From positions 1 through 63,295 of IMG/VR virus record IMGVR_UViG_3300032050_008197: a stretch of DNA of 63,295 bases; one strand, written 5' to 3'. Positions within the stretch are counted from its first letter, which is position 1. Each line of letters begins with the position of its first letter. A program made the position numbers and the translations under genes. Shown here piece by piece: positions 45,774 to 61,916 of this stretch. The stretch comes from a virus. Its lineage: Duplodnaviria > Caudoviricetes. The notes under the pieces were generated by a model that worked only from the letters and a program-made list of their open reading frames with translations, did not search any database and was not told the origin of the DNA.

Positions 45774-46492
45774 AACTGTTAATAGATGTCAATCAAATAT
45801 CTCAAGAAGAAGCAGAGCAAGGTGAAAGATTCAAAGACGCTCACGGGGTGTGGTTCCTTAAAAACAATAGTCAGGTAAGGGACGACACCTGGAAAGCGTT
45901 CATAAAGAAAGTTGGTGTTCCTGTGATAACAGAAGACGGAGCCTTCGATAGAGCAGAGCTAGCATCTACAGGCAGAGTAGGAGAAGCTAGGAGGCAATTA
46001 CTAGATCTAGGTTTAGACTGTAAGTTCTGTATGGTGTACGTAGAGAGACCTGATATTAGATTCTATGACGCTGACCTTAACATATATAAACCAGAAGCCG
46101 GCAAACCTATAATAGTTCTCTGCAGGAATTATGCAGGAGAGAATAAGGCAGCTATTAAACAGAACCTAAAGAACAAAAACTGCGGCGGCGTAGTATTTGA
46201 GCTAAAAGCCACAGGTGCTTGGGTCAATCAAATAGACTTAAGAAGAGGAATTAGAGACGTCATAACAGCCGGCAAGAGGTGCTTTGTACTACTAACTCCT
46301 CAACATCCCTCTATTAACTACAGAAAAGATATAGCCGGAGCTATTAGGCAGATTAAAAGATCTCCTCATTGGGGGAGCGATAAGCTCTATATAGTTCTCT
46401 GTGCTTATGAATTAGAGAACACCGGCATTACTTTCTTAGGTGGACCTAATTCTGTGGAAGGTGCTTATCAATATATAAGGGATATGAAATGA
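45770..46492 (+). CDS. Hypothetical protein
   Basis: 240-aa ORF, ATGA-coupled. Confidence 0.7.
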   Translation: MKLLIDVNQISQEEAEQGERFKDAHGVWFLKNNSQVRDDTWKAFIKKVGVPVITEDGAFDRAELASTGRVGEARRQLLDLGLDCKFCMVYVERPDIRFYDADLNIYKPEAGKPIIVLCRNYAGENKAAIKQNLKNKNCGGVVFELKATGAWVNQIDLRRGIRDVITAGKRCFVLLTPQHPSINYRKDIAGAIRQIKRSPHWGSDKLYIVLCAYELENTGITFLGGPNSVEGAYQYIRDMK

Positions 46493-46827
46493 TTAAAGAA
46501 TTCATTAAATGCTCTGTATGTGGATCAGAAACACCTAACGGGCCTTTTGGTACTATTGGAGATACATGGTTCTGCTCTGTAGAGTGCTTCGGTATCCTAG
46601 AAAATGAGAAGGATGTGCAAGCTGCGAATGAAACCCAAGTAGGAGGGAATCACTATAAAGATCAAACAATACAGCCTTGGGATTACATCATCAGTAACAA
46701 GCTTGGGTTCTTAGAAGGTAACATCGTTAAGTATGTTAGTAGATGGAGAAATAAGGGAGGAGTTGAGGACTTAAAGAAAGCTGAACACTATTTAAAGAAG
46801 TTAATAGAAACGGAGGAGAAATGTTAG
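46489..46827 (+). CDS. DUF3310 (nucleotide kinase-like, T7 gp1.7-related) protein with N-terminal Zn finger
   Basis: QVGGNHY...GFLEGNIVKYVSRW..KGGVEDLKKAEHYL. Confidence 0.85.
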   Translation: MIKEFIKCSVCGSETPNGPFGTIGDTWFCSVECFGILENEKDVQAANETQVGGNHYKDQTIQPWDYIISNKLGFLEGNIVKYVSRWRNKGGVEDLKKAEHYLKKLIETEEKC

Positions 46828-47051
46828 ACGAGAAATATAGAATAGGGACTAAGATATATTTAGTTACGAAGAGAAGGGATGAAGAAGCCATCAGTTTATA
46901 TGGACCTATCTCAGTAGAAAAAATACAAATATCCTCTGAGGGAGTTCTGTATTACTTATCTACAGGTGAGTGGAAGCATAAAACTTACGATATGTTTATT
47001 GATTTAGATGACGCAGTAGAAGCATTTAAAGGAAGGCTAGAGAAGAAATGA
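46821..47051 (+). CDS. Hypothetical protein
   Basis: GGAG SD. Confidence 0.55.
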   Translation: MLDEKYRIGTKIYLVTKRRDEEAISLYGPISVEKIQISSEGVLYYLSTGEWKHKTYDMFIDLDDAVEAFKGRLEKK

Positions 47052-49180
47052 TCAGCATAATTATCCCCACATTCGGCGACAATGAAAGAGTAACTAAGTT
47101 AAAAGACTCTGTACGAAAACACGAGGCACCTTTCCATGAAGCGCCTATATCTCATATGTATGAGTTTATTGTCGTAAACGATAACCCTAAGAAGGAGATG
47201 ATGTCAGTTATTAATAACGAAAAGAACCTCGGCTTTGCTGCGTCTGTTAATAAAGGAATGGCTGCAGCTAAAGGGGATATTATTCTGTTATTAAATGACG
47301 ACATCACAATCACAGCTCCATTCATCGACACCTTAAATGAGGCTTTTAAAGATCCAGATCTAGGTATAGCCGGCGCTTTGCTTGTATATCCTAACGGCTC
47401 TATTCAGCATGGAGGCATGGCATACAACGAAAAGTTAGGAAGCTTTTTGCATATTAAAAGCTTCAACAGACTACAAAGCAGGTACTGTATTGCTGTGACC
47501 GGAGCTTTCTTTGCTATAAGAAGAGAGCTTTATAACAAGATAGGCGGGTTGGATGAGAGATTCTTTCTAGCCTGTGAGGATACTAAGTACTGTCTAGATG
47601 CTTGGGATGCTGGATATACAGTAAAGTTTTTCAAAGAGCTAACAGCTATTCACGAGGAAGGGGCTACTAGAGGTAACACCCCTAAGAAGAAAAAAGATAA
47701 GCCTGAGTGGACGGAAGCTGAAGCTAAAGGAATAAAGGAATTCAAAGCACAGCTAGACCTCTCTAAGATAAGAGAGATAGAAAAGAAAGTTAAGAAACTA
47801 AATGCTAAGAACCTAAAGATTGAAGTAGGCTCAGGGTATAATCCCCAGCCTGGGTATTTACATCTAGATATAAGAGGAGGATTACCTCAACTAGATTATA
47901 TCTGTGACTTCGTTAAACAGAGACTGCCTTTTAATGACGGGGAAGTTTCTGAGATTCTAGCCAATCATGTAATAGAGCATATTCCTTTCAGGAAACTTCC
48001 TTTTGTAATCAGTGAGTGGGCTAGGGTGCTAACTCCTGGAGGCCGGCTAGTGCTAAGGACTCCTAATCTAAGGTTCATCTGTGAGCAATACTTAAAAGGT
48101 GAGACAACTCCTGAGTGGCCTGGAGATGAAAAGTTTATAAAGGAAAACTTATCTGACTCTGTAACGCCGGCTTGGTGGGCGAATCTTAAATTATTCTCTG
48201 GTCAAGACTACGATGCTAATTTTCATCATGTGTGTTTTGATGCAGAGATGCTTAGAGATCTATTAGGTAGGTACGGGTTTACAGATGGAAGAGTCACTGA
48301 TCTAGGAAAAGAGTATTCTCCTGGTGAGCTGCAGTTTGAATCTTTTAAAGCCGAGCCTAGAGAAATCTGCTTGCTTAAAAGACTAGGAGCTTTAGGAGAT
48401 GTAATACTAACTACACCTATTGTAGAGCGTCTGCATAAGGAAGGATATGATGTTTATATAGACACAATGTGTCCTCAAGTATTTACTAATAATCCTTACG
48501 TTAAAGGAACCTATTTAAATCTGGATAAAAAACCTAAGCCAGTAATCGCTAGGAGGGTAGACCTGGATTTAGCTTACGAGAAGAATCCTAAGATGCATAT
48601 CATAGATGCTTATTCTCTGGAGGCTTTTGGAGATACTAAGACTCCTCATGAGACCAATCTCTACGTACCTAATTATTTAGTAAGTAAAAACAATTTTATT
48701 CCATACATAGTTCTCCATATGGGAAATAGTTGGGAGAACAGAACTTGGTCTAAAGAGTACTGGAAAGAGCTACTAAAGAAACTTCTGTACAGTGGAGAAA
48801 AGATAATCATAGTCGGTTCAAAAGACGACTTCCGATCTGAAAGCTCTAGCATCACTAACTTAGTAGGTAAGCAAACTTTCCATGAGTTAGCAGAGACAAT
48901 TAGAAACGCTAAGCTTTTCATCGGGATAGACTCAGCTCCTTTTCACATAGCTGAAGCTGTGGACACACCGGCTATAGGAATATTCACTTGTGCTAATCCT
49001 GAGTTTAGATCTACTAAGAAAAGCACGTTGCCAGTTGTGCCTGATATTGATTGTAAGTTCTGTCTGCACGAAGAGAAGCCTCCAGTTACATGGTGTGGCT
49101 GTAAGCGTGGAGACTTCAAGTGCCTGGAGATAATTACACCGGATATGATTTATGAGAAGTATTTGGAGATGAAGGTATGA
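47048..49180 (+). CDS. Triple fusion: GT2 glycosyltransferase + SAM methyltransferase + GT9 (heptosyltransferase-like)
   Basis: ISIIIPT, NLGFAASVN, LLNDD, GGLDERF (GT2); IEVGSG, HVIEH, RVLTPGG (MTase); RLGALGDVILTTP, FIGIDSAPFHIAEA (GT9). Confidence 0.85.
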   Translation: MISIIIPTFGDNERVTKLKDSVRKHEAPFHEAPISHMYEFIVVNDNPKKEMMSVINNEKNLGFAASVNKGMAAAKGDIILLLNDDITITAPFIDTLNEAFKDPDLGIAGALLVYPNGSIQHGGMAYNEKLGSFLHIKSFNRLQSRYCIAVTGAFFAIRRELYNKIGGLDERFFLACEDTKYCLDAWDAGYTVKFFKELTAIHEEGATRGNTPKKKKDKPEWTEAEAKGIKEFKAQLDLSKIREIEKKVKKLNAKNLKIEVGSGYNPQPGYLHLDIRGGLPQLDYICDFVKQRLPFNDGEVSEILANHVIEHIPFRKLPFVISEWARVLTPGGRLVLRTPNLRFICEQYLKGETTPEWPGDEKFIKENLSDSVTPAWWANLKLFSGQDYDANFHHVCFDAEMLRDLLGRYGFTDGRVTDLGKEYSPGELQFESFKAEPREICLLKRLGALGDVILTTPIVERLHKEGYDVYIDTMCPQVFTNNPYVKGTYLNLDKKPKPVIARRVDLDLAYEKNPKMHIIDAYSLEAFGDTKTPHETNLYVPNYLVSKNNFIPYIVLHMGNSWENRTWSKEYWKELLKKLLYSGEKIIIVGSKDDFRSESSSITNLVGKQTFHELAETIRNAKLFIGIDSAPFHIAEAVDTPAIGIFTCANPEFRSTKKSTLPVVPDIDCKFCLHEEKPPVTWCGCKRGDFKCLEIITPDMIYEKYLEMKV

Positions 49181-49452
49181 CGGACGAGCGTAGGTGGGAA
49201 AAAGCTAGACTGCTTCATAGCTATTACGGGCTATCCAGCGTAGGAGTATATGGAAAGGATTTAGAAATAGCCTTACAGCACCATGATTTAGTAAGTGATT
49301 ATTTGATCAGACATCCTGAGATAGAACAGAAGTGGTGGGAAGAGGATGAGGCATGGAAAAAATACGATGCTAAAGTCGGTCCATGTCCTGAAGTAAATTA
49401 CGGATATTATCAAATATTAAATAGAGCAGAAAAGGAGAGAGATGCTGGTTAG
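49177..49452 (+). CDS. Hypothetical protein
   Basis: ATGA-coupled. Confidence 0.55.
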   Translation: MTDERRWEKARLLHSYYGLSSVGVYGKDLEIALQHHDLVSDYLIRHPEIEQKWWEEDEAWKKYDAKVGPCPEVNYGYYQILNRAEKERDAG

Positions 49453-50137
49453 CTTAATCACCCCTACGGGAAGCCGGCCTGAAGCTTTTGCTCTCTGCGA
49501 AAAGTGGATGAGTCAGCAGACTTATAAAGGTAAGATGCAGTGGTTAGTTGTGGATGACCATCCGGTCAACCCTGCTAAACTGACTCTAGGACAAGAGTTA
49601 GTCAAAGCTCCTATGTGGTGGAATCCTGAAGTAAATACGCAAAGACCGAACATGTCGGCACTCTTAGAAAAAGTTAAAGGGGATGTATGCTTAGTGATCG
49701 AAGATGACGAATTTTACGCTCCTGACTACATTGCTTCCATGCTGAAACTTTTAGAAGTCTCCCAGGTAGCCGGCCTTTCAAGTTCAAAATATTATCATCT
49801 CCACGCTCCAGGCTTTAAAACATTAGACAATACTAAACATGCTCCTCTCTGCCACACAGCTCTAAGGAAAGAAGCTCTGCCTCTCCTATATGAAGCTGTG
49901 CATAGCGGTCACTATTACTTTGACATAGAGCTTTGGAAGAAAGCGCAAGCAAGGGAGATCCCTTGTGCGTTACTGTCCAATACTACTCTGTCAATAGGTA
50001 TAAAAGGGATGCCTGGGAGAGCCGGCTTAGGCACCGGCCATGAGCTAGTAGGTTATCAGGGAGATAGAGATCTAACTATGCTTAAGAAGTGGTTAGGAGA
50101 GGATCATAAATATTATCTTCCTTTTATTAAAAAATGA
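49442..50137 (+). CDS. GT-A fold (GT2-like) glycosyltransferase
   Basis: VSLITPT..R, WLVVDD, IEDDEFY. Confidence 0.8.
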   Translation: MLVSLITPTGSRPEAFALCEKWMSQQTYKGKMQWLVVDDHPVNPAKLTLGQELVKAPMWWNPEVNTQRPNMSALLEKVKGDVCLVIEDDEFYAPDYIASMLKLLEVSQVAGLSSSKYYHLHAPGFKTLDNTKHAPLCHTALRKEALPLLYEAVHSGHYYFDIELWKKAQAREIPCALLSNTTLSIGIKGMPGRAGLGTGHELVGYQGDRDLTMLKKWLGEDHKYYLPFIKK

Positions 50138-50142
50138 AAAAG

Positions 50143-50186
50143 CAGGAACTTTTCCTGTTGACGTAAAAGAAATACTTACATAGACT
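50143..50186 (+). promoter_or_regulatory. Sigma70 promoter with an upstream inverted repeat
   Basis: TTGACG (50158-63), 17-nt spacer, TAGACT (50181-86); CAGGAA-ctt-TTCCTG abuts the -35. Confidence 0.65.
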
Positions 50187-50215
50187 GCGACAGTCATATT
50201 AAAACGGTAAGAACA

Positions 50216-50719
50216 ATGGCAAAAAACGATAATTGGACAACTCCTCAACCTCTTTATGACTGGCTACATGAACGATGTAACTTTAACGTAGATGCAGCAG
50301 CTTCTAAGAAAAACACTAAATGTAAGAGATTTTATTCTAAAGAGAATTCTTTTTTAGATATTCCTATAGATAAGCTAGGCAATCATTTAGTTAAGATAAA
50401 GGCTAGGATTTTTTGTAACCCTCCTTACAGCCTTGACATGGAATTTGCACAACGTCTTAGGTATTTAGCAGCAACGTACAGTATACCTTCTTATATTCTG
50501 CTGCCACAACGCTGTGATAGAATATGGTTCCAACAATTTAGAAACAGCAAGATTGTTAAAGAAGAACCTTTTACAGGCAGAATTCATTTTGGTAACGCCG
50601 GTAAAGGTGCCTTTATGTACAGTGTTGGAATGTTCGTAGGTTTTAAGGATGTTAAGGTCAGGAAATGGATAGACGCCGGCCAGTTCAATGAAGGCGGTAA
50701 AGGTGGAGCTACGTTTTAA
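50216..50719 (+). CDS. Phage DNA N6-adenine methyltransferase (Dam-like)
   Basis: DNWTTP, FNVDAAAS..N.KC..FY, FCNPPYS, GRIHF. Confidence 0.85.
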   Translation: MAKNDNWTTPQPLYDWLHERCNFNVDAAASKKNTKCKRFYSKENSFLDIPIDKLGNHLVKIKARIFCNPPYSLDMEFAQRLRYLAATYSIPSYILLPQRCDRIWFQQFRNSKIVKEEPFTGRIHFGNAGKGAFMYSVGMFVGFKDVKVRKWIDAGQFNEGGKGGATF

Positions 50720-50987
50720 TATGACATGTAATTGTTTGAAATGCAGAACCTCTGCCTCTACTCTTCCAGTAGGAGACGGAAGACATGTAGCAGATTGGAA
50801 TGGTAAAGCTGCTACTAGTTTAGTTATCGGTGGTCCAGATGGACTACCTATGATCATAGCTACTTTCCATGCAGACTCTACTTCTCTGTTAGTTGAGCCT
50901 TGGATGGTCAATAAAGCATTAAGAGTAGCTACAAAAGTTCTCGCTAAGTGTGTTGCTAACTATAGTAAAGATGAGCCGGTGAATTAA
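50688..50987 (+). CDS. Hypothetical protein
   Basis: ORF fills the operon gap; start uncertain. Confidence 0.45.
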   Translation: MKAVKVELRFNMTCNCLKCRTSASTLPVGDGRHVADWNGKAATSLVIGGPDGLPMIIATFHADSTSLLVEPWMVNKALRVATKVLAKCVANYSKDEPVN

Positions 50988-50988
50988 T

Positions 50989-51195
50989 ATGAACAATCCA
51001 TTTGAAGTGAAAAAGAATAAAGAGCTAGACGATGCTGAGAAGAAGCTTTTAGCTGAGCTTAAGAAAGTCTCAGGCCGGCAGAGGTTAACTGTGTATGACA
51101 TCTTAGAATGGTCTGCACAGAAGCTAGAGGCATTTGAGGGAGAGGTAACTTACTTTCTTCCTGAGTTAAAGATTTATGTGAAGGTAGAGGTATGA
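50989..51195 (+). CDS. Hypothetical protein
   Basis: Operon-consistent ORF. Confidence 0.55.
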   Translation: MNNPFEVKKNKELDDAEKKLLAELKKVSGRQRLTVYDILEWSAQKLEAFEGEVTYFLPELKIYVKVEV

Positions 51196-51196
51196 T

Positions 51197-51409
51197 ATGG
51201 ATTCAGAATTCAAAGAAAAAGTAACAGCAGCTTGCACTGAAATAGAGAAAACATTATTAAGGCAAAAACTTGAAACAGCATTTCGGTTGGGATTACGTAG
51301 AGGTATATTCGAATCAGTCAGACTAGATTTAGCTTATGTTCTTGATTTAGGTAATCCTCCTCTTTCTGAGGCTCAGGCTATTGAAAAATTAATGAAGGGG
51401 GAAGCATGA
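51197..51409 (+). CDS. Hypothetical protein
   Basis: GAGGT SD. Confidence 0.55.
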   Translation: MDSEFKEKVTAACTEIEKTLLRQKLETAFRLGLRRGIFESVRLDLAYVLDLGNPPLSEAQAIEKLMKGEA

Positions 51410-52647
51410 GCGAGAATGTAACAGATAAAGAACATCACCTCTACGGAGGCAGCTCGGCCAAGTACTGGTCTAACTGCTTCGGTTGGGCATCAATAGTTAA
51501 AGACATACCCCAGGAGCCGGCAGGAGAGGCAGCTCTTAGAGGCACAGCTCTACATACCGGAGTACTGGAGGTAAAAGTAAGAGGAGAGATTCAAAAACTC
51601 ACAGACGGTACTCCTGTTCTCCCTGACTACTCTATAATCCCTAACTGGCCGGAAGAGGGAGAAGCTTTAGCAGAGGAGTTCTGGACCTTACTATTTGAAA
51701 AAGAACTAGAAGGATTTATTACAGGTAAGCAGATATACATAGAGAGAAAGTTAATGCTCTCTCAGGAACTAGATGCCGGAGGAACGGCAGACATAGTAAT
51801 TCTTTACCATAACGATAAAGGAAAATTAGTAGCAGTTGTAGGCGACTGTAAGTTCGGACGCATCTCAGTAGACGCCGGAGATGAGCAGCTTAAATTCTAC
51901 CTCACTACTTTAAATAAATTAGCAAGAGAGAAAGGAAAGCAGATAGACGTATTCAAGTCTTTCATATATCAGCCGGAAACATTCCCTAACTGGAAAGAAC
52001 ATACTTTTACTAAGTCAGAGATTGAGAAAGCTGAAGCTAAATATAATAAGGCTATAGCCGAGAGCAAGAAAGAAAAACCTAAATTTAAAGTAGGTGACTG
52101 GTGTGAATGGTGCAAAGCTAGAGGAAGATGTGATGCCTATACTAAGCACTTAGATAAAGAGATGGAGCTGACAGTAATAAGAAACCAAGACCTTAATACA
52201 GTCCAGTTTATAAACGTAGCTGAGACTCCTACTGATACTTTAGTTAAGATCCATAGAAACAAAGCTAAGATTAAAAACTTATTCACTGCAGTAGATAAGG
52301 AACTTATCATCCGGCTAGCTAATGGTGAGAAGAATGATGAGATAAAAATAGTAGAAGGAGTTACTAAGAGAAAGTTTAAGGACACTGAGGAAGTAGTTGA
52401 TACAATGAAAGCTCATGGCGTTAATCCGTTTAAAGCAGCTCCTATTATGGGGATAGGAGACATGACTAAAGCTCTTATGCTTGCTAAAGACATCCCTAAG
52501 AAAGAGGCAGACTTAATTATTAATCCTCTTACAGTTAAGCCAGAAGGCCGGCCCAAAATCACTAGCATAGATGACCCTGCTCCAGCATTTAGCTTCTCAG
52601 ACCCTGCGAAGTTACTGGAGGGGTTAGACGATGATAGTGAATTTTAA
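51406..52647 (+). CDS. DUF2800 Cas4-like PD-(D/E)xK exonuclease
   Basis: GSSAKYWSNC, GTALH, GGTAD, DCKFG, QLKFY, WCEWCKARGRC. Confidence 0.85.
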   Translation: MSENVTDKEHHLYGGSSAKYWSNCFGWASIVKDIPQEPAGEAALRGTALHTGVLEVKVRGEIQKLTDGTPVLPDYSIIPNWPEEGEALAEEFWTLLFEKELEGFITGKQIYIERKLMLSQELDAGGTADIVILYHNDKGKLVAVVGDCKFGRISVDAGDEQLKFYLTTLNKLAREKGKQIDVFKSFIYQPETFPNWKEHTFTKSEIEKAEAKYNKAIAESKKEKPKFKVGDWCEWCKARGRCDAYTKHLDKEMELTVIRNQDLNTVQFINVAETPTDTLVKIHRNKAKIKNLFTAVDKELIIRLANGEKNDEIKIVEGVTKRKFKDTEEVVDTMKAHGVNPFKAAPIMGIGDMTKALMLAKDIPKKEADLIINPLTVKPEGRPKITSIDDPAPAFSFSDPAKLLEGLDDDSEF

Positions 52648-52681
52648 ATTGTATAAATAAAATAAGTTGATAAGGATTGAT

Positions 52682-53356
52682 ATGGCAAAGGATAATAAAA
52701 CAGTTAACGGGTTCACCTTACTAGTTCCCACAAAGGATAGACCTTTTAGCGGTATATACGGAAACGATATTGCGTCTCCGTTAGGTAGAATAGCATTCGT
52801 TAATTTAGCTACTCCTGCTGGAAGACCAGGAGATAAGCCTAAATACGGAGTTTCACTTCTTGTTCCTAAGAATGAAGGACTTAATGATAAGACACTTGAA
52901 CAGCAAGTATTTCATCTTAAAGAGATTCAAACTATGTGCAAACTTATGGCTCAGGATCTATGGGGAGCTAATGCAGAGGAGAATCTTAAAAAGATTAAGC
53001 GTGGATACTTTGGAGACGGAGATAGTCCATCTACAACTGGCAAGGTGTATGACGGATATGCCGGCACAAGGGTAATCAATGCTAGGAACGGAAAACCTCG
53101 TGGTCATAACCAAGGATGGAGAATACTGAATGAGGGTATGGAGCCTGAGCAGTTTGAGGCAGGAATGATATGTAGATTGACTCTTCAACCTTTCTTAAAC
53201 TCTGATGGGTATTCTTATTCCTTACGGGCTATCAAGTTCATCAAGGATGACGGAGTTAGATTCGGTGGAGCACCGGACCCTGCTTCAGTTATGGATCACT
53301 TGGATAATGCAGTAGCTGCTGTTAGTGCTAATCTAGGTGATATGACGGTTGCTTAA
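52682..53356 (+). CDS. DUF2815-type ssDNA-binding protein (probable start MAKDN)
   Basis: RIAFVNL..P...KYGVSLLVPK, GDGD, GYAG, LRAIKFIKDDG.RFGG; usual DUF2800-DUF2815-PolA synteny. Confidence 0.8.
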   Translation: MAKDNKTVNGFTLLVPTKDRPFSGIYGNDIASPLGRIAFVNLATPAGRPGDKPKYGVSLLVPKNEGLNDKTLEQQVFHLKEIQTMCKLMAQDLWGANAEENLKKIKRGYFGDGDSPSTTGKVYDGYAGTRVINARNGKPRGHNQGWRILNEGMEPEQFEAGMICRLTLQPFLNSDGYSYSLRAIKFIKDDGVRFGGAPDPASVMDHLDNAVAAVSANLGDMTVA

Positions 53357-53365
53357 TATCTGACA

Positions 53366-53402
53366 CCTGGAAAGACAGGATGCATGAGGATTCCTTGTGC
53401 AT
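53366..53402 (+). ncRNA. Two short hairpins opening the ncRNA array
   Basis: CCTG-GAAAGA-CAGG and ATGCATGAGG-att-CCTTGTGCAT. Confidence 0.45.
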
Positions 53403-53493
53403 GAAAAGCTCGGTACTGGACAACCCCCAGCAGTCAGTCTCATAGAGTAGATAGACTGTGACAAAGCGAGGGAAAATACCTTCGGAGCTTTTC
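53403..53493 (+). ncRNA. Unidentified multistem RNA, possible pseudoknot
   Basis: GAAAAGCTC/GAGCTTTTC closing GGTA/TACC, CTGG-acaaccc-CCAG, AGTCT/AGACT; loop CCC can pair with GAGGG. Confidence 0.5.
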
Positions 53494-53494
53494 G

Positions 53495-53587
53495 TGGACA
53501 AGGGAACATAGTTGCTACAGAGTTATCTTACCGTTATCTTTGTAATGCGTCAGGTTGTTTACTGACTCGTTCGTGTTTCCTTGTCCA
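53495..53587 (+). ncRNA. C4-like three-way-junction antisense RNA candidate
   Basis: 14-bp outer stem TGGACAAGGGAACA/TGTTTCCTTGTCCA; TACAGAG-[TTATCTTACCGTTAT]-CTTTGTA; GTCAG-[GTTGTTTA]-CTGAC. Confidence 0.6.
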
Positions 53588-53593
53588 GTTTAA

Positions 53594-53641
53594 TCTCCTG
53601 ATGAGCTGGCGAGATTCCAGCGAAACACTTAGGTGTCGAGA
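53594..53641 (+). ncRNA. Type I hammerhead ribozyme
   Basis: TCTC-CTGATGA-GCTGG-cgagatt-CCAGC-GAA-ACAC-ttag-GTGT-C-GAGA: complete catalytic core with a GUC cleavage triplet (cut after 53637). Confidence 0.88.
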
Positions 53642-53667
53642 AGCGCTACTCATATACAGCTGTTATG

Positions 53668-53777
53668 GCTTTGCCGAGCGAAAGTAGATAGCGAGGTTCC
53701 CAAGTGCTACGGAATCTGGGGTAAACCGCAAACGAGAGAGCACTAGCGGTGACAGGGAGGAGAGCACTCCCATTTTT
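53668..53777 (+). ncRNA. Unidentified structured RNA with possible kissing loops, ending in a terminator-like hairpin
   Basis: GGTTCC-[caAGTGCTac]-GGAATC and ACCGC-[..AGCACTa]-GCGGT have complementary loops; GGGAG-gagagca-CTCCC-ATTTTT. Confidence 0.45.
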
Positions 53778-53789
53778 AAAAAGGACTCT

Positions 53790-54092
53790 ATGAATATAAA
53801 TCCAGCAAGTGACGTACTAATAGTAAAAGAAATAACCCCTTCTGAATCCACACCCGCCGGCATATTCCTTCCTCCTAGCCACACAGAAAAAGATACCTTG
53901 ATGAAAGCTGTTATCGTAGCAGCCGGTCCAGGGAAGATTAATGCTAAAGGAGATATAATCCCTCACGATTTTGTAGTGGATGAGATAATTGTTTTCGAGA
54001 AAAGGAGAGCACTGCCGGTTACTTATGAAGGGGAGAAGTATATTTTCATAAATGCTTCTGAAGTTTTTGGGACTGTGGAGAAGGTTAACTAA
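53790..54092 (+). CDS. groES: Co-chaperonin GroES
   Basis: INPASDVLIV...TPAGIFLP...IVAAGPG...EGEKYIFINASEVFG. Confidence 0.9.
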   Translation: MNINPASDVLIVKEITPSESTPAGIFLPPSHTEKDTLMKAVIVAAGPGKINAKGDIIPHDFVVDEIIVFEKRRALPVTYEGEKYIFINASEVFGTVEKVN

Positions 54093-54317
54093 GTGAAGAA
54101 AGAATACACAGACGTAGATTTTGAAATGTTCGTAATGCCTTTCGGTAAGCATCAAGGCAAGACTATTTCAGAACTGCCGGCTACGTATCTTCTCTGGTTA
54201 GTAGATGAGAGTTTCTGTCCTCCGGTACTGAAAGCTTATATAGAACTTAATGAAGAGGATTTGAGGGAGCAAGCAGATGAAGGTGACTATCATTATGATG
54301 ATCCAAGTTGGAAGTGA
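54093..54317 (+). CDS. DUF3820-like (MPFGK[HY]xG motif) small protein
   Basis: MPFGKHQGKTISELPATYLLWL. Confidence 0.75.
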   Translation: MKKEYTDVDFEMFVMPFGKHQGKTISELPATYLLWLVDESFCPPVLKAYIELNEEDLREQADEGDYHYDDPSWK

Positions 54318-54319
54318 AG

Positions 54320-54751
54320 ATGAAGAAAACTAAAAATACTAAAGGCCGGCGTAAACTTTTATATGATCCGTCTACCAGGTTTTATTGGTTTTTTCAACTA
54401 GGAGGCTCAGAGGAAGACGCATGTAAATGGTTCTGTAAAGAGATGCGTTTTTCTCTTCCGGAACTAGATTCAGGAAACGCAGGAATCTTTGTAAAGAATA
54501 ATTCTTTTAATAGGACAGGTCTAATATGGGTAGGGGATAAAGATTCTCAGGATATTTCTGTAGTAAGTCACGAAGCTAGTCACGCAGTTACGCATCTATG
54601 CAGAGTAATGAAAATAGATCCTTTAGCTTCAGAAGAATTTGTAGCTACTTATCACGGTTATCTAATAGGAGAGTTCCTTACTTTAGTTAATGAAAGCAGC
54701 TCTCTTTATAAGAATAAATTTAGGCTTCCATTTAAATACAAACTAAAGTAA
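54320..54751 (+). CDS. HExxH zincin-like protein
   Basis: VSHEASHAV...EEFVA. Confidence 0.55.
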   Translation: MKKTKNTKGRRKLLYDPSTRFYWFFQLGGSEEDACKWFCKEMRFSLPELDSGNAGIFVKNNSFNRTGLIWVGDKDSQDISVVSHEASHAVTHLCRVMKIDPLASEEFVATYHGYLIGEFLTLVNESSSLYKNKFRLPFKYKLK

Positions 54752-54802
54752 GGTAACTAAAATTATTACCTGAAAAGGTTAAATTATAAAAAGGAAAATA
54801 AA

Positions 54803-55135
54803 ATGAGTGAATGTATTATTGAATTAAGTGAGCGATCTAAGGCTAAGTTAGATACGCTTAAATACGTATCGGGTCTATCTGCTGAAAGCCTAGAAAAAAT
54901 GAAAGATATCAGAGCCGGATTCTTTAAACTAGCTGCAGAGGTTTTAGCTTTAGGAGATAGCAGAGAAACTTCTGAAGCTTTTACTTGTCTTGAAACAGGT
55001 CTTATGTTTGCCATTAAGCATGTATGTTTAGTAGATGCTGGAGCACTTAAAGAAGGGATTAAAGGATGCTGTGAAGGCACCGAATGTGAATCTTCTTTTA
55101 ATCCAGACTTACCTGAAGGCGAAGTAGAAGGATAA
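54803..55135 (+). CDS. Acb2/Tad1-like helical hairpin protein (putative cyclic-nucleotide sponge)
   Basis: LSAESLEKMKDIR..F..LA.....DSRETSEAFTCLETGLMFAIKHV resembles the RExSxAxTxLE/QTxxMxA pattern. Confidence 0.55.
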   Translation: MSECIIELSERSKAKLDTLKYVSGLSAESLEKMKDIRAGFFKLAAEVLALGDSRETSEAFTCLETGLMFAIKHVCLVDAGALKEGIKGCCEGTECESSFNPDLPEGEVEG

Positions 55136-55140
55136 CAAAA

Positions 55141-55893
55141 ATGAAACGAAGATCTTTAGGTTGGCGCAGAGATAGCTTAGATAAAAGAGATAACATCTTC
55201 TCAAGTTCTAGACTAAAAGAATATATTAAAGTATTGCCGGCTCATGTGGACCTAAGATCTTCGTTTCCTCCTTGCTATGATCAAGGAGAGTTAGGTTCCT
55301 GTACAGCTCAAGCAGTAGGATCAATCTGCGATTATAAGTATGGTTTAGATAATACATTCTTCCCTTCTAGGCTTTTCCTTTACTACATGACAAGGAAACT
55401 AGAAGGAACTACTTTCATAGATAACGGCGCTACTTTAAGAAACACCATCAAAGCAATCAACAAGTTCGGTGTCTGTGATGAATCAGTATGGAATTACATT
55501 ATTGCTAACTTTAATATAGAGCCTCCTTCTTGGGTAAAGGTTCTAGCGGAAAAGCATCAGGCAGTATCTTACAGAAGAGTAAAGCAGAGACTAGATGATT
55601 TAAGAGCTGCTATTGCTGATAGTCATCCGGTTGCTTTTGGGTTCTCTGTTTATGAGAATCTTTACAGCCTTAACAAAGATAAATACCTATTAGAGTTTCC
55701 TGATCCTAACGATGCTCCAGAAGGAGGACACGCTGTAACAGCCGTAGGGTACGATGATACCTTACAGTATTTTATCATTAGAAATTCTTGGGGAGAGGAG
55801 TGGGGAAGTAATGGATACTTTCTCATGCCTTATAATTTTATCTTAGATAAGACTTTGTGTTCTGATTTTTGGACTATTGAGTTAATGGAGTAG
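55141..55893 (+). CDS. C1 (papain-like) cysteine peptidase
   Basis: DQGELGSCTA, GGHAVTAVGYD, IRNSWGEEWG. Confidence 0.92.
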   Translation: MKRRSLGWRRDSLDKRDNIFSSSRLKEYIKVLPAHVDLRSSFPPCYDQGELGSCTAQAVGSICDYKYGLDNTFFPSRLFLYYMTRKLEGTTFIDNGATLRNTIKAINKFGVCDESVWNYIIANFNIEPPSWVKVLAEKHQAVSYRRVKQRLDDLRAAIADSHPVAFGFSVYENLYSLNKDKYLLEFPDPNDAPEGGHAVTAVGYDDTLQYFIIRNSWGEEWGSNGYFLMPYNFILDKTLCSDFWTIELME

Positions 55894-55895
55894 GT

Positions 55896-56216
55896 ATGAG
55901 TGATAAGTTTTTAAAAGAAGTAGGTGGGATAGCAGAAGAAGCTTTAGAGGAGACTATAAGAGAGCTAGCTGAAGAGGATGCAAAGAAAAAACCTAAAGCT
56001 GTCTTTGAGAAAGCTGATCCAGGGTCTGCGTTTTGGTACGTACTTCTCGGTGCTCTTATTAAATCTAGATCTGATTTCTATGAGTTCACTAATAGCGTTC
56101 CTACAGCTTTAATATCTATGGAAGATATTGAGTCTCTTAAAGATCACGTAGTCGTAGTTAAAGATGATCCACACGCTCGTGGGGGTTTTATTGTTACAGT
56201 AGAAAAACAAAAATGA
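55896..56216 (+). CDS. Hypothetical protein
   Basis: GGAG SD; operon-consistent. Confidence 0.6.
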   Translation: MSDKFLKEVGGIAEEALEETIRELAEEDAKKKPKAVFEKADPGSAFWYVLLGALIKSRSDFYEFTNSVPTALISMEDIESLKDHVVVVKDDPHARGGFIVTVEKQK

Positions 56217-58063
56217 TTAAGAACTTTACAGTAGACTTTGCCGGCTCATCTTATCCGGCTATCTATATAGACACTAAAGATAAGGCTGAAGCTGCTATTC
56301 AAAGGATGCTGGAATCCAAAGAGATCTTAGTAGCTGATATAGAGACAGCAGCTCTACCTCAATATAAACATATTCCTGAAGCTGCTCTTTCTCCTCATCT
56401 TGCCAGACCTAGACTCATTCAAATGTTCACTGGAAAAGCTGCGGTGGTTATTGACCTATTTAAGACGGGAGAGTTACCAAGCTTGAAGACTCTGTTCGAA
56501 ACTAGGAGTAGCTGCTTTCACAATCTTAACTTTGATCTGAAGATGATGATGAAGTGGTTTAAGGTTGAATCGGGAGACTTTCACTGCTCTGCTATTATGA
56601 GCCGGTTGGTTTGGCAAGCTCTATACCCTACATTCAAATCCGCAAGCTTAAAGGATGTAGCCAAGGCTTTACTCAATGTTGAGGTAAATAAAGCTGGAGG
56701 TAAAAGTGACTGGAATATTACGGAACTCACCTGGGAACAGGTCAATTACGCTGCAGCTGATACTATAATGCTTTACCTTATTCATGCAAAATTAAAAGAC
56801 TGGATACAAAAGCTTAACCTAGAGAAGTGCTATGAGGTTTACAGAAAAGCCCAGATACCTATATCTATGATGGAGTTGAACGGAATAAATTTTGATGTCG
56901 AACACCACAAGAAAAACATAGTTAACTGGAGATCAGAGTTAGCTGATGCTCGTGATGAGCTACAGAGAATGACAGGTATTCAGGTAGTAACACCTGCCAA
57001 GGTAGGTAAGTGGTTGAAAGAAAACTTACCTCCGGAAGTGGCTGCTATATGGCCTAGAACAGATTCTACAAAAGACGAAGCTGAATGGGAAGATGTTCAG
57101 CTAGCTACTAATGCAGACGCTTTTATAAACTTTTCTCATATCGAGATAGTTAAACCCTTTGCTAAGTACCAGAAAATGTCCAAGCTTTGCACTAGCTTTG
57201 GAATGAACCTTATTGAAATGATTAATCCTGCTACTAAAAGAATTCATGCCGGCTATACAGTTTGTGGCGCAAGAACAGGCAGAGTTAGCGGGTCCAATCC
57301 TAACTTCCAGCAATCCCCTAGAGATAAAGAATTTAGAAAAAGTTTTATTCCCACTGCAGGGTATGAATTAGTTGACGCAGATTTTTCTCAGATAGAGGTA
57401 CGTTATATAGCAGAACTAGCTCAAGAGGAGAGAATGCTAGAAGCTTTCGAGAACGGAATAGATATTTATTCAGCTACTATAGCCGGCATGTTAGGAAAAA
57501 ACATAAAAGATATCACTAAAGATGAGAGGCAGCAAGGTAAGGGAATAGTTCTCGGTAGATCATATGGTTTGGGTAGATTAAAACAATCTAGTTACTGTAA
57601 GAAAAACTACGGCATAACTTTTACTACAGAAGAAAATGATAGACTCTTTTATGCTTACAGAGATTTATATCCGGCATTATATAAATGGCAACTCAGACAG
57701 ACAGACCTCTGCCAAGCTAATAGATATACAGCGTTTGCTGCTTTAGGTAAGTCTAATAAACTATCAGAAGATAAGTATTGGGGTGCATCTATGAATCACC
57801 CTGTTCAGAGTGGCTGTGCTAGCATTATGTATATAGCTTTAATACTAATTGCTGAAGCTTTTAAAGGAAAAGATGTTAATCTTATCGCTAACGTGCATGA
57901 TGAAATTATTCTAGAATGCCGCCCTACAGAAACGGGAGAAGTAAAGAAGAAGGTAGTGGAGTGCATGGAGAAAGCTTATTGTACGATACTACCTGTAAAT
58001 AGAACCTTAAGGAACTTGGTTGACCCTGGAAGTGGAGTAAACTGGAGCGAGGCAAAAGGATGA
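56213..58063 (+). CDS. polA: DNA polymerase family A with 3'-5' exonuclease
   Basis: ADIET, HNLNFD, YAAAD (exonuclease); TGRVS..NPNFQQ, ADFSQIEVR, RQQGKGIVLGRSYG, NHPVQS, VHDEI. Confidence 0.93.
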   Translation: MIKNFTVDFAGSSYPAIYIDTKDKAEAAIQRMLESKEILVADIETAALPQYKHIPEAALSPHLARPRLIQMFTGKAAVVIDLFKTGELPSLKTLFETRSSCFHNLNFDLKMMMKWFKVESGDFHCSAIMSRLVWQALYPTFKSASLKDVAKALLNVEVNKAGGKSDWNITELTWEQVNYAAADTIMLYLIHAKLKDWIQKLNLEKCYEVYRKAQIPISMMELNGINFDVEHHKKNIVNWRSELADARDELQRMTGIQVVTPAKVGKWLKENLPPEVAAIWPRTDSTKDEAEWEDVQLATNADAFINFSHIEIVKPFAKYQKMSKLCTSFGMNLIEMINPATKRIHAGYTVCGARTGRVSGSNPNFQQSPRDKEFRKSFIPTAGYELVDADFSQIEVRYIAELAQEERMLEAFENGIDIYSATIAGMLGKNIKDITKDERQQGKGIVLGRSYGLGRLKQSSYCKKNYGITFTTEENDRLFYAYRDLYPALYKWQLRQTDLCQANRYTAFAALGKSNKLSEDKYWGASMNHPVQSGCASIMYIALILIAEAFKGKDVNLIANVHDEIILECRPTETGEVKKKVVECMEKAYCTILPVNRTLRNLVDPGSGVNWSEAKG

Positions 58064-58500
58064 GTACTCATAGGCATTCTACTCGTACAGGATATACATC
58101 TACTTATAGTGCTTGGAAGGCGCTTAAATTACGTTGTCTGTGTAAAACAAGTAAAAGTTATCCTCGCTATGGAGGCAGAGGAATTACTGTGTGTAAAAGA
58201 TGGATGAAATTTGAAAACTTTCTAAAAGATATGGGAGAGAGGCCAACAGGTTTAACGCTTGAAAGAATTAACAATAAAAAAGGATACTATAAGAGTAACT
58301 GTCGATGGGCGACAGCTTTAGATCAGGCTAATAACAAAAGAAATAATATATTCGTTAAATACAAAGGACGCTCTTTAACTATAGCTCAATGGGCTAGAGA
58401 ACTTAACATAAGAGTGCGTACTTTATACAACAGAAGGTATAGAGGTAAAACTGGAAAAGAACTATTAGCTCCTTCTGTAAATAAAAGATTGACAAGATAA
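58060..58500 (+). CDS. HNH homing endonuclease
   Basis: WKALKLRC...YGGRGITVC..W..FENFLKDMGERP...LERINN...NCRWAT. Confidence 0.88.
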   Translation: MSTHRHSTRTGYTSTYSAWKALKLRCLCKTSKSYPRYGGRGITVCKRWMKFENFLKDMGERPTGLTLERINNKKGYYKSNCRWATALDQANNKRNNIFVKYKGRSLTIAQWARELNIRVRTLYNRRYRGKTGKELLAPSVNKRLTR

Positions 58501-58520
58501 AAATAGTAAGGCAAACTAAA

Positions 58521-58853
58521 ATGAGTAGCCCCACCCAACGAGCCTTAAAAGAATTAAGAAAGAGAGGTTGGAAAGTATACATCACTGAGAAGTTTAATGC
58601 TTTCGCTAGAATCAGGCAGGACGCTTTTGGGTTTGGAGACTTATTAGGAATTGATATAGAGAGTAAAAAAATAGTACTTGTGCAGGTAACATCAGGAGCT
58701 AATCACGCAGCTAGAATAACCAAGATAAAAGGTATTCAAGAAGCGTATGATTGGATAGATAGCGGAGGGCTAATCCTGGTAATGAGCTTTAGAAAAAACT
58801 CTAAAGGTAGATATGACATGAGAGAGGAATATCTAGATTTAGTAAACAATTAA
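58521..58853 (+). CDS. PD-(D/E)xK nuclease / Holliday junction resolvase-like
   Basis: SPTQR...LR..G...V...DAFGFGDL......LVQVTS. Confidence 0.7.
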   Translation: MSSPTQRALKELRKRGWKVYITEKFNAFARIRQDAFGFGDLLGIDIESKKIVLVQVTSGANHAARITKIKGIQEAYDWIDSGGLILVMSFRKNSKGRYDMREEYLDLVNN

Positions 58854-58863
58854 TGGAGACTAT

Positions 58864-59469
58864 ATGAAAAAGAAAAAAACGGTAAAGAAAGAAGCACCTA
58901 AGAAAGTAGTAGCTAAGAAAGCTCCTGCTAAAGTTAAGGCACCTAAACAAGCAAAGGCATCTTTTCAAGATGCTATATCCGGTGCTTTAGATCGTCTGCT
59001 TGATCTTGCTAAAGCTCAAGTCTATGACATGTTTAAGATGTACGTGCAGACTAATCTGCATGTTAACATGCCGGCTACTTTAGAGGACTTCATTGCTTCC
59101 TGGAGTAACACCTTAAAGACTCACGGTATTACTGACGAAGAGTTAGTAGCTGCTCTTGCTCCGCATCAAAGAGATTATCTTCTAGCTTCTACTAAGAAAG
59201 CAGAAGGTAAAGTAGTTCCTGCTCAGGAGAAATTAATAGCTAACCGAATAGCTGAAGCTAATCGACTGGCTGAAGTGAAATTATGTCAGGAGCCTCCTGA
59301 GGCTGCTTTAATAGGAGCACCTGTCGCAACTAAGCCTTCTGGTGTAGTTGTACAGCAGGATCAAGCAGTCAAGATAAATGTAGATGAGTTCGGGCTAGAC
59401 CTTACTCCTCCTACTAAGGCTGCTCCTGCAGCAGCTAACTCAGTGTTTGCTGATCTGGATGTACTTTAA
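58864..59469 (+). CDS. Hypothetical protein with Lys/Ala/Pro-rich (H1-like) N-terminus
   Basis: GGAG SD; KKVVAKKAPAKVKAPK. Confidence 0.7.
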   Translation: MKKKKTVKKEAPKKVVAKKAPAKVKAPKQAKASFQDAISGALDRLLDLAKAQVYDMFKMYVQTNLHVNMPATLEDFIASWSNTLKTHGITDEELVAALAPHQRDYLLASTKKAEGKVVPAQEKLIANRIAEANRLAEVKLCQEPPEAALIGAPVATKPSGVVVQQDQAVKINVDEFGLDLTPPTKAAPAAANSVFADLDVL

Positions 59470-59492
59470 TATTTAACAGGAGGTATAACGTA

Positions 59493-60596
59493 ATGAGAAA
59501 GATACTAGCTATTTTAGTTTTACTAGCCGGATGTAGTTTTCAGAAAGATATACCTCCTGTTGTTCGTGAAGTTCCGCAGATTAAGGCCACTCGCACACCT
59601 ATCCCTGCTATAGCTAATCTCGGTATGGCTAGGTATGCGAAGGTTGCTAGGGACGCACACCCTAAAGGATTCGGTAACGTAACATTTACTAATACCTTTG
59701 GGGATGCGTACCCTGCTTTAGATGCTTTGCTAGCAACCGGCAAAGTTTCAGTTCAAGAATATAATCTTCTTTGGAAAGATGATCACAGATTCAGTCGTAG
59801 AGATTTTCCTTTTATAGTCGAGGAGGCTAAAAAATATGTATCACTTGTTAATAGGTATCCTGATGTTGGTTGTATTTTCTCTGGAGCTACGGAACATAAT
59901 CTCAGTAAAGACGATGCTACTGCTCTTGCTACCGCTGTACTTGCTGTGGTTCCTGCTAGATGCACCTATTCTAATAATCCCTGGGTAGGTAAAGGCGCAT
60001 TCATTGCAGCCGGCCCTAGAATATGTAACGAAATTCACGGATGGCCGGCTAAGAAGCCTAATGTTCCAGGTTGCTATATACACAACCTAGACGGCACAGA
60101 TGCTTTCGATGTTCCTTACACAGATGTAAAGAAGGCTTTTCCTGATGCCTACATGCTTGCCGTATGGACTTCGCAGAATAATGGTAAGAGCAATAGAAAC
60201 GATACGACTCCAAGACCTAAGAGAAAGTTCTGGCCTACTACAGAGCTTATAGACATGCTCGCTTTCTTGTTCACGAAACAAGGAGCTGTCAGCTTACCTA
60301 AGAATTATACAGTCAAACCTAAAGCTGATCAGCATATGGTTCCTCCTGAGCCGAGAGCTTTAAAACCTGTTTTTATTTTACCTTACGCCGGCAATGTAAT
60401 TGAGTTATGGGCTGCAGGTAAAAGAATCGTAACCAGTGAGCCGGCTCAGAAGTTTGCTGATGGAAGATGGAGATATTATTTCAGAGACTACGGTTACAAG
60501 ATTGTAGAGAAAGCTAGAACTTCTGTACTAGGACTATGGGTTCGAGGTAAAAGAGTAGGTAAAACTAATCCTGGGTTTAGACAATTTGGAGAATAA
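59493..60596 (+). CDS. Predicted lipoprotein, 367 aa
   Basis: AGGAGG SD; MRKILAILVLLAGC lipobox. Confidence 0.75.
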   Translation: MRKILAILVLLAGCSFQKDIPPVVREVPQIKATRTPIPAIANLGMARYAKVARDAHPKGFGNVTFTNTFGDAYPALDALLATGKVSVQEYNLLWKDDHRFSRRDFPFIVEEAKKYVSLVNRYPDVGCIFSGATEHNLSKDDATALATAVLAVVPARCTYSNNPWVGKGAFIAAGPRICNEIHGWPAKKPNVPGCYIHNLDGTDAFDVPYTDVKKAFPDAYMLAVWTSQNNGKSNRNDTTPRPKRKFWPTTELIDMLAFLFTKQGAVSLPKNYTVKPKADQHMVPPEPRALKPVFILPYAGNVIELWAAGKRIVTSEPAQKFADGRWRYYFRDYGYKIVEKARTSVLGLWVRGKRVGKTNPGFRQFGE

Positions 60597-60597
60597 T

Positions 60598-60885
60598 ATG
60601 CCAGTAGAATTGAACTTAGTTCCTAGTGATAACCTTTTAAAAGACCTGCAAGGCCCTTGCTCTATCAAGTATATAAAAGAAAAAGAGCCGGCCTTATCTA
60701 CTTCTCTCAAAGAGGATGTAATGGGGATACTAGAAAACGGTAAGCCTTTAGAGGTACAGTGCATAGAAATCATTCGTTACTTTAAAGACAATCAATACTC
60801 TACTCAGATGATAGATTTTCTGCGAGGTGAAGGAATGTCTCATGCTTTAAATGCGAATGCAGATTTTAATGGGCATGAGGATTAA
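60598..60885 (+). CDS. Hypothetical protein (start MPVEL)
   Basis: GGAG SD. Confidence 0.55.
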   Translation: MPVELNLVPSDNLLKDLQGPCSIKYIKEKEPALSTSLKEDVMGILENGKPLEVQCIEIIRYFKDNQYSTQMIDFLRGEGMSHALNANADFNGHED

Positions 60886-60905
60886 CATAAACTAGGAGAA
60901 TGTAT

Positions 60906-60977
60906 ATGGATAAGAAAGCAAAGAAGGTAGTTAAGAAAGAAGTAAAGAAAGCAGTTAAAAAGAAAGCTAAGAAATAA
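60906..60977 (+). CDS. 23-aa Lys-rich peptide MDKKAKKVVKKEVKKAVKKKAKK, not in the ORF track
   Basis: AGGAG SD upstream; followed directly by a terminator. Confidence 0.55.
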   Translation: MDKKAKKVVKKEVKKAVKKKAKK

Positions 60978-60982
60978 GGTTT

Positions 60983-61011
60983 AGGGGTGCCTTTACGGAG
61001 GTACCCCTTTT
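60983..61011 (+). terminator. Rho-independent terminator
   Basis: AGGGGTGCCTT-tacg-GAGGTACCCCT followed by TTT. Confidence 0.7.
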
Positions 61012-61021
61012 AAAAGGCACT

Positions 61022-61345
61022 ATGGAAGAACAAACGGACGAACAGACATTCGAGCAGACCTTCAAAGAAGAGATAGAGGAGATTCAAAAGAGAGCAGCAG
61101 ATAACGATCAGTTAGCTGTGTTCCTTGCTGCAACTAAAGAGAGGTTCGATAAGCACTTTGATCATCTAGGTTACGTTTGTTTTGTTTTTGATAAGAGTAA
61201 TCCGGAGAATGCTTACATAGCTAACATCTCTAATGTGCCGGTTAAGGGGTACCTGAGAAAGCTACTTCCTTTCCTAGCTAAATACAGACAGGCGTTTAGG
61301 AAGTTAAATAAGAATAGAAGCAGGAATTTTAGGAGAGTGAAATAA
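61022..61345 (+). CDS. Hypothetical protein
   Basis: 107-aa ORF. Confidence 0.6.
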   Translation: MEEQTDEQTFEQTFKEEIEEIQKRAADNDQLAVFLAATKERFDKHFDHLGYVCFVFDKSNPENAYIANISNVPVKGYLRKLLPFLAKYRQAFRKLNKNRSRNFRRVK

Positions 61346-61551
61346 TGCAAGACGATGTAGGTTTAGATAATTACAATAACTCTAAAAGATATATCGAAGA
61401 AGCCCTTACTGCCGAGCGAGAACGAATATTTAATGAAATTAGAAAGGTGGCTGAAAATGTTTATAGACCTAGTAAGCCTCCTTATGCACTTATTTATGTA
61501 CATACTCTAGCTGAAATTTGTAAGGTGGTTAAGTGGGGGAGAGTGAAGTGA
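61345..61551 (+). CDS. Hypothetical protein
   Basis: AGGAG SD; TAATG coupling. Confidence 0.55.
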   Translation: MQDDVGLDNYNNSKRYIEEALTAERERIFNEIRKVAENVYRPSKPPYALIYVHTLAEICKVVKWGRVK

Positions 61552-61915: not shown

Positions 61916-61916
61916 A

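Follow-up and report, generated by a model that had tools for sequence, protein, structure and literature searches.

Hammerhead ribozymes have been known between phage genes since 2010-2011. The main text of one study describes hammerheads that flank prophage genes and proposes that they cut long phage transcripts (PMC3088659, Perreault et al. 2011), and passages of a review place type I and type III hammerheads in bacterial intergenic regions, with a persistent link to phages and a role described there as an open question (PMC6155905). The same passages treat the type I hammerhead Sm-alpha of Schistosoma, whose full-length structure is solved and whose fast cleavage needs a contact between loop II and stem I. 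We analysed a single window of DNA, a complete virus record of 63,295 bp, in which the original prediction, made from the letters alone, had placed a canonical type I hammerhead at 53594-53641.

As far as these sources describe their hammerheads, the motif in the window matches theirs in its core, in a three-helix junction whose stem I is open, and in its kind of site, between genes on the coding strand of a phage. PMC3088659 and PMC6155905 give prominence to pseudoknot contacts and to clusters in which several ribozymes flank small genes, whereas a search with the family covariance model described below found a single hammerhead copy in this genome. Schistosoma Sm-alpha, as it appears in the review passages, shares the type I topology of the window, but makes its contact through an internal loop in a long stem I, whereas stem I in the window's family is 4-5 bp and open. 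Conservation points to the 7-nt loop II and an unpaired A 5' of stem I as the candidate contact in this family.

A described phage that carries a member of the same family is Pseudomonas phage phita81A (PQ738200.1, locus L184, 1494-1548), which scores 53.9 bits with the covariance model R1. Together with the near-identical loci L022, L036 and L060, it has the GCUGG/CCAGC stem II, the 4-bp stem I and a short stem III like those of the window. Its hammerhead has a clear terminator after it and stands in ~430 nt of unannotated, non-coding sequence, an arrangement that resembles the gap in the window. The two differ in their cut sites (GUU in phita81A, GUC in the window) and in their neighbours: the phita81A gap has a small CDS and tRNA-Thr at its two ends in place of the SSB and GroES genes, and its flanking non-coding sequence is unrelated to that of the window.

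The hammerhead motif and its gene setting

A type I descriptor scan of the whole window, on both strands, returned one match, 53594-53641 on the plus strand. Read 5' to 3', with its immediate flanks, the motif consists of the following elements.

53590-53593, plus strand: 5' flank UUAA, in which A53592 is the family's conserved A at -6 from C3 in the covariance model alignment
53593 and 53642, plus strand: A53593 opposite A53642, an A-A mismatch at the place of the fifth stem I pair found in most members
53594-53597, plus strand: stem I 5' strand UCUC, pairing with 53638-53641
53598-53604, plus strand: catalytic core C3-A9, CUGAUGA
53605-53609 and 53617-53621, plus strand: stem II, GCUGG/CCAGC, 5 bp
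53610-53616, plus strand: loop II, CGAGAUU, 7 nt, fitting the family consensus UGARAYY
53622-53624, plus strand: core G12 A13 A14
53625-53628 and 53633-53636, plus strand: stem III hairpin ACAC-UUAG-GUGU, including the pair A15.1-U16.1
53637/53638, plus strand: C17 and the predicted scissile bond of a GUC site
53638-53641, plus strand: stem I 3' strand GAGA

Every core nucleotide and all three stems that the original prediction had listed were thus found on the plus strand. The conserved core is present as CUGAUGA (53598-53604), GAA (53622-53624) and C17 (H17) at 53637. Stems I, II and III are 4, 5 and 4 bp long, loop II has 7 nt and loop III is a tetraloop. The pairs next to the core are C53597-G53638 (N1.1-N2.1), G53605-C53621 (G10.1-C11.1) and A53625-U53636 (A15.1-U16.1). 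Stems II and III are capped by loops and the 5' and 3' ends leave through stem I, which is the type I topology. These observations confirm that 53594-53641 is a complete type I hammerhead motif. Taken with the comparisons below, they make it probable that the motif is a functional, self-cleaving type I hammerhead ribozyme on the plus strand of this complete 63.3-kb phage genome.

The genes around the motif, and those that characterize the genome, are as follows.

51406-52647, plus strand: DUF2800 / PD-(D/E)XK nuclease
52667-53356, plus strand: Enc34-type ssDNA-binding protein, SSB (Pfam PF10991, E 8.8e-10)
53790-54092, plus strand: Cpn10/GroES co-chaperonin (Pfam PF00166, E 5.3e-16)
after groES, plus strand: QSregVF_b-like protein
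55141-55893, plus strand: papain-family (C1) cysteine peptidase (Pfam PF00112, E 1e-16)
56213-58063, plus strand: family A DNA polymerase
62445-63293, plus strand: LpxR-like outer-membrane protein, running off the end (PF09982, E 1.8e-48)
32266-32341, minus strand: tRNA-Asn (GUU), the single tRNA

The two genes between which the ribozyme had been placed were both identified by Pfam, as an Enc34-type SSB gene and a Cpn10/GroES gene. The ribozyme stands mid-way in the 433-nt gap that separates them, with the SSB stop codon 244 nt upstream and the groES AUG 152 nt downstream. The LpxR-like protein suggests a Gram-negative host and possibly a remodelling of the host envelope. Other RNA families in an Rfam scan of the window were limited to the tRNA and to look-alikes below threshold. 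One such stretch of ~68 nt, 38818-38885, matched the mir-50 precursor model below threshold on both strands (32.2 and 26 bits, against 43), a match that probably reflects a long symmetric hairpin.

We looked for relatives of the gap by several routes. A blastn search of 53340-53800 against cultured phages gave no match, a locus search with the SSB as a single protein found nothing, and BLAST of the gap against all fetched loci aligned the hammerhead alone. No repeat of the gap was found elsewhere in the window. SSB relatives at 57-60% identity, taken from an alignment-based search, have neither the long gap nor a hammerhead; closer SSB relatives, at 65-80% identity at the protein level, exist. 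The idea that the gap is a decayed small gene was rejected: tblastn with the small proteins encoded next to SSB in relatives gave significant matches only for the window's GroES and its L004 homologue, both on the groES start within the searched stretch, and the best other match had an E value of 0.075. A short string, GAGGAGAGCAC, near the 3' end was seen by eye to be common to the window, L013 and L022.

The sample distribution of the stretch points to a freshwater phage. Contigs from four other DNA runs match the window without a difference wherever they cover it, none of them spanning the whole stretch, and so offer no variation within the lineage; five of the best holder runs may be the source sample. 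The interval 53200-54000 recurs unchanged in contigs of public runs from several studies, whose labels are lake water, freshwater and 'fungus metagenome'. RNA runs among the listed runs that hold the stretch numbered 0.

A hammerhead sub-family in viral and cellular genomes

We collected relatives of the motif from IMG/VR viral contigs by two complementary scans. In the first, the core and the window's stem II were fixed and the loop was left free, and 77 stretches were returned. Fifty-two of 61 unique instances closed as full type I hammerheads. With the loop free, 57 of 60 unique loops were nevertheless 7 nt long, with the consensus UGARAYY, and an A stood at -6 in 53 of 60; a C at the first position of loop II, as in the window, occurred in 4 of 57. 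In the second scan the core and loop II were fixed and stem II was free, which gave at least 119 stretches, against 0 matches in IMG/VR when the same pattern was read backwards. The matches listed comprise 120 unique instances, of which 117 have all 5 stem II pairs, built from 24 different stem II sequences, and 115 close as type I hammerheads. The loop CGAGAUU of the window is present in 3 of the 120 unique instances among the matches listed, and stem II and loop together are identical to the window's in locus L078.

The 115 members that close, among the matches listed, define the proportions of the family. Stem I is 5 bp long in 86 of them, 4 bp in 18, 6 bp in 7, 3 bp in 3 and 7 bp in 1; the cut site is GUC in 93, GUA in 17, GUU in 4 and GGA in 1; stem III is a 4-bp stem in 28 and a 12-nt hairpin in 5; and the A at -6 from C3 is present in 112. 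The window shares these details, with A53592 at -6, U at -7 and -8, the loop CGAGAUU, a 4-bp stem I and a GUC site. It has the 5-bp stem II with the 7-nt loop, and a short open stem I bounded by the unpaired A53592. Doubt had been raised in the original prediction over whether a 4-bp stem I would suffice; that doubt is eased by the same length in 18 of 115 viral members (among the matches listed) and in 16 of 72 cellular ones.

Pairing in the family is supported by covariation. In an alignment of 84 sequences drawn from the matches listed, 98.3% of the cells in paired positions were paired, as against 68.3% in shuffles and 20-35% when the partners were slid, and 12 of the 14 pairs showed changes on both sides. 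The idea of a pseudoknot between loop II and the flanks was rejected on low mutual information (at most 0.20 bits) and the absence of any Watson-Crick pattern of covariation. From the 84 members, with the window left out, we built the covariance model R1. R1 aligned all 61 of its positions to 53590-53645 and gave that stretch 58.5 bits (rough E 5.8e-17); over the 126 kb scanned, its next best match in the window scored 12.6 bits. The R1 score is circular in part, since the scan patterns that gathered the family were derived from the core and loop of the window itself; left free by these patterns were the helices, the A at -6 and, in the loop-free scan, the loop consensus. Descriptor and model together back the reading of a canonical type I hammerhead with a predicted cut after 53637.

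These results also bear on whether the motif could be a chance fit to the hammerhead consensus within an unrelated structured leader. A loose descriptor, in which all stems had at least 4 bp, G-U pairs were allowed and long loops were allowed, gave 20 matches in 1500 synthetic windows, or ~1.3% per window; chance motifs are thus to be expected over many windows, and the bare motif alone is not decisive in a large scan. The Rfam scores of the window, which lie below threshold, point the same way. Yet the window fits the family beyond the core, in the 7-nt loop II consensus, the A at -6, the G10.1-C11.1 and A15.1-U16.1 pairs and the compact stem III. With the gap between the first and second R1 scores and the empty reversed-pattern control set against at least 119 forward matches, we regard a chance fit as scarcely credible.

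The Rfam check proposed with the original prediction failed. At gathering thresholds the whole window yielded the tRNA alone and no hammerhead, and a permissive scan of 53340-53800 gave a single weak match, to RF00008 (type III), whose 18.6 bits fall short of the threshold, 48.5. That alignment carries 10 non-standard pairs, and the type III register was therefore dropped in favour of type I. RF00008 and RF02275 (HH9), of clan CL00010, have the core consensus in common with the window, but give no gathering-score match to it or to the sub-family loci tested. The Rfam 15 hammerhead models at gathering thresholds returned 0 matches in 13 loci that each contain a clear member (L009, L013, L014, L015, L022, L032, L034, L051, L060, L061, L068, L075 and L078). 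In permissive scans of family loci, L068 reached 24.5 bits, and L022 and L184 reached 18 bits with RF02275. Since clear members of the same sub-family fail too, the failure of Rfam on the window says nothing about it, and routine annotation with Rfam will in effect pass over this phage and prokaryote sub-family. The Drum RNA motif is often found downstream of hammerheads. Its Rfam model had no match at E<=10 in 53340-53800 and none at E<=1 across the window.

The pattern anchored on loop II also occurs in cellular genomes, where it returned 75 stretches, and 72 of 77 unique instances closed as type I hammerheads. Many of the cellular records (L185-L259) are titled Legionella, several are thaumarchaeal, Nitrosotalea or bathyarchaeal, and Propionicimonas, Acinetobacter and Clostridia also appear. 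This host span is very wide for one loop II design. Judged by sequence, the window ribozyme is a member of a large family in phages, bacteria and archaea, whose 5-bp stem II carries a 7-nt UGARAYY loop and whose open stem I is short, mostly 5 bp, with a conserved unpaired A just 5' of it. Within the collection, five matches to the pattern crowd into 4.3 kb of a single strand of locus L021 (1892-6179), which resembles the gene-flanking hammerhead clusters described in 2011; L086, L142 and L146 have two matches each. Another member, in locus L015 (2282-2310, minus strand), has a 55-nt stem III and lies inside a large tRNA array, with tRNAs on the same strand ~160 nt downstream and ~210 nt upstream.

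Of the 115 viral members among the matches listed, 57 have an upstream ORF of at least 50 codons whose stop codon falls at -8 or -7 from C3, and 8 more use the UGA within CUGAUGA as a stop codon; the next gene starts a median of 31 nt past the cut in the same 115. The stop-codon overlap takes in the conserved A at -6 (IMG/VR loci L009-L183). In these members a ribosome that terminates there would sit over stem I and the core, and the overlap, with the gene spacing of ~31 nt, points to a tight coupling with translation and message processing. Our literature search found no description of hammerheads overlapping stop codons, and the term 'stop codon' is absent from the main text of PMC3088659. 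The window departs from this setting. So do 32 of 115 members among the matches listed, which have no ORF of at least 50 codons ending within 60 nt, and the stop-codon setting is thus common and not defining. The setting of the window ribozyme is thus atypical for the family, and as a find the ribozyme is unusual only in that it lies within a long and strongly folded stretch of non-coding sequence.

The upstream domain and competing folds

Upstream of the ribozyme we distinguish three structural features.

53357-53593, plus strand: strongly folded non-coding domain of 237 nt, directly upstream of the ribozyme
53495-53509 with ~53575-53590, plus strand: long helix, inverted repeat I1, present in the minimum free energy (MFE) fold of 53357-53593
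53580-53613, plus strand: competing local hairpin, incompatible with the hammerhead fold, the MFE fold of 53580-53660

The domain 53357-53593 has an MFE of -86.4 kcal/mol on the plus strand, against a shuffle mean of -61.7 (z -5.16); the minus strand gives -66.0 kcal/mol (z -2.52). No homologue of it was found by blastn against cultured phages, by BLAST against the fetched loci or within the window. In the original prediction, cleavage was expected to release an antisense RNA encoded upstream. The domain folds much better on the plus strand than on the minus strand, and a plus-strand ribozyme cannot free a minus-strand RNA, so the release of an antisense RNA is unsupported. On its modelled energies the domain is a sense-strand structure, not an antisense RNA.

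The end of this domain has two possible partners. The helix 53495-53509/~53575-53590 ends 3 nt before stem I and ties up a strand that is able to mispair with the 5' half of the ribozyme; alternatively, 53580-53590 can pair with that 5' half. The hammerhead fold is the MFE fold of the 56-nt motif alone. In short contexts it is penalized relative to the competitor, by 8.3 kcal/mol in 53580-53660 and by 10.5 kcal/mol in a -60/+40 context, and an equal disfavour was found in only 1 of 115 family members among the matches listed. With longer upstream context the hammerhead fold lies 3.1-7.3 kcal/mol above the MFE, depending on the chosen ends, and the MFE of the full intergenic region excludes it by 3.7 kcal/mol; all of these are model values that leave out tertiary contacts and shift with context. 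When 53484-53510 was shuffled the median penalty was 10.8 kcal/mol, and only 4 of 100 shuffles had a penalty no higher than the native one. Sequential folding should favour the active ribozyme, since the competitor strand is no longer free in the MFE fold of the transcript that ends at 53593. According to these models, the strong competitor hairpin could reduce the activity of the ribozyme or gate it.

The competitor raises the question of whether the motif is a true hammerhead descendant that is silent here, either as a relic or as a copy held inactive by the hairpin 53580-53613, its transcript being uncut to any useful extent. The deficit of 8.3-10.5 kcal/mol in short contexts, with its single match among the 115 members listed, and the exclusion of the hammerhead fold from the full intergenic MFE would suit such a copy, as would the short stem I with its A-A mismatch at the fifth position, the atypical position distant from both genes, and the 57-60% SSB relatives that have neither gap nor hammerhead. 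Against this, the core is complete, the two closing pairs are kept, and so are the loop II consensus and the A at -6; these features speak against a relic, because decay should have cost some of them. A 4-bp stem I is an ordinary variant (18 of 115 members among the matches listed), sequential folding favours the active form, and the energy model behind the deficit ignores tertiary contacts and gives results that depend on context. We therefore consider a silent copy distinctly unlikely and retain the functional ribozyme as the preferred reading.

The surroundings of the ribozyme hold more than the original account had described: the placement stood, and to it are added the competing hairpin 53580-53613 and a terminator-like hairpin at 53755-53771. 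Within the upstream domain, a direct repeat, UUCCUUGU, is present at 53391-53398 and 53577-53584, and both copies can pair with ACAAGGGAA at 53498-53506, which makes two mutually exclusive helices upstream. Such helices would allow the hammerhead to act as the output module of a conformationally gated RNA of ~280 nt, that is, a natural allosteric hammerhead responsive to a signal. In one state, 53575-53590 would be locked in the long helix and the ribozyme would be free to fold and cut. In the other, the other copy of UUCCUUGU would be paired, and 53575-53590 would invade the 5' half of the ribozyme and shut cleavage off. Since the penalty shifts between 3.1 and 10.5 kcal/mol with the chosen ends, we do not treat this switch as shown, and on the folding models we hold it to be rather improbable.

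The downstream hairpin and the predicted cleavage products

Downstream of the ribozyme a further element precedes groES.

53755-53778, plus strand: terminator-like hairpin GGGAG-GAGAGCA-CUCCC (hairpin 53755-53771) followed by AUUUUUAA

When the nuclease-SSB-GroES-PolA block is transcribed, the motif would fold and cut its own backbone. From its fit to the hammerhead consensus we infer cleavage between C53637 and G53638, along with the chemistry of the ends and the consequence for expression; a cut 3' of C17 that leaves cyclic phosphate and 5'-OH ends is the established chemistry of hammerheads. The upstream product would carry the SSB message, the 237-nt folded domain and the body of the ribozyme, with a 2',3'-cyclic phosphate end. 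The downstream product would begin with a 5'-OH at G53638 and either run into groES or stop at the terminator-like hairpin after ~139 nt. The groES-polA transcript with a 5'-OH end that had been proposed is a reasonable expectation, given the family A polymerase gene downstream on the same strand. 5'-OH ends protect bacterial RNAs from 5'-end-dependent decay. The likely effect of the cut would be to uncouple the fates of the upstream and downstream messages, whose two halves would differ in stability or translation.

The terminator-like hairpin occupies the stretch 117-134 nt past the cut, which leaves 13 nt to the ribosome-binding site of groES. Its position allows a different emphasis, in which the main role of the ribozyme is to form the 5' end of a small RNA of ~139 nt (53638-~53776) and not to process mRNA, the hammerhead, the RNA and the terminator making up a cassette. 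Family members provide parallels: by a home-made rule, and with related loci included in the first count, terminator-like sites within 300 nt were found in 15 of 25 long-gap members but in 17 of 82 short-gap members among the matches listed. The clearest terminators stand 56-95 nt past the cut, in the P. aeruginosa phage group (L022, L036, L060 and L184), in the L103/L113/L126 group and in L063. However, the putative RNA has no excess structure (z -0.17 for 53638-53778), no homologue of it was detected by BLAST against the fetched loci or by Rfam, and the terminator is weak, with a 5-bp stem. Because the hairpin stands so close before the groES ribosome-binding site, expression of groES would need read-through, barring an unseen promoter. 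Promoter scans, which found none in 53000-54200 and fewer than in shuffles over 44000-63295, carry no weight either way. We judge a small RNA as the main role to be unlikely, if slightly less so than the gated switch. Both the small-RNA and the gated readings are refinements compatible with the main one, a functional hammerhead that would cut between the SSB and groES messages.

The window ribozyme is, in itself, a fairly ordinary find of a widespread phage intergenic type, and a single instance adds little to the field, because such hammerheads were already known from 2010-2011. A reading made from sequence nonetheless picked out what is probably a real ribozyme that standard Rfam models miss, and its by-product is a covariance model and a census of a sub-family undetected at Rfam thresholds in any of 13 loci. 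If gating were true, the element would set the ratio of the SSB message to the GroES-PolA message, or release the 139-nt RNA with its 5'-OH end. A hammerhead beside a folded domain with mutually exclusive helices would then bear on what the hammerheads of prokaryotes and their phages do.
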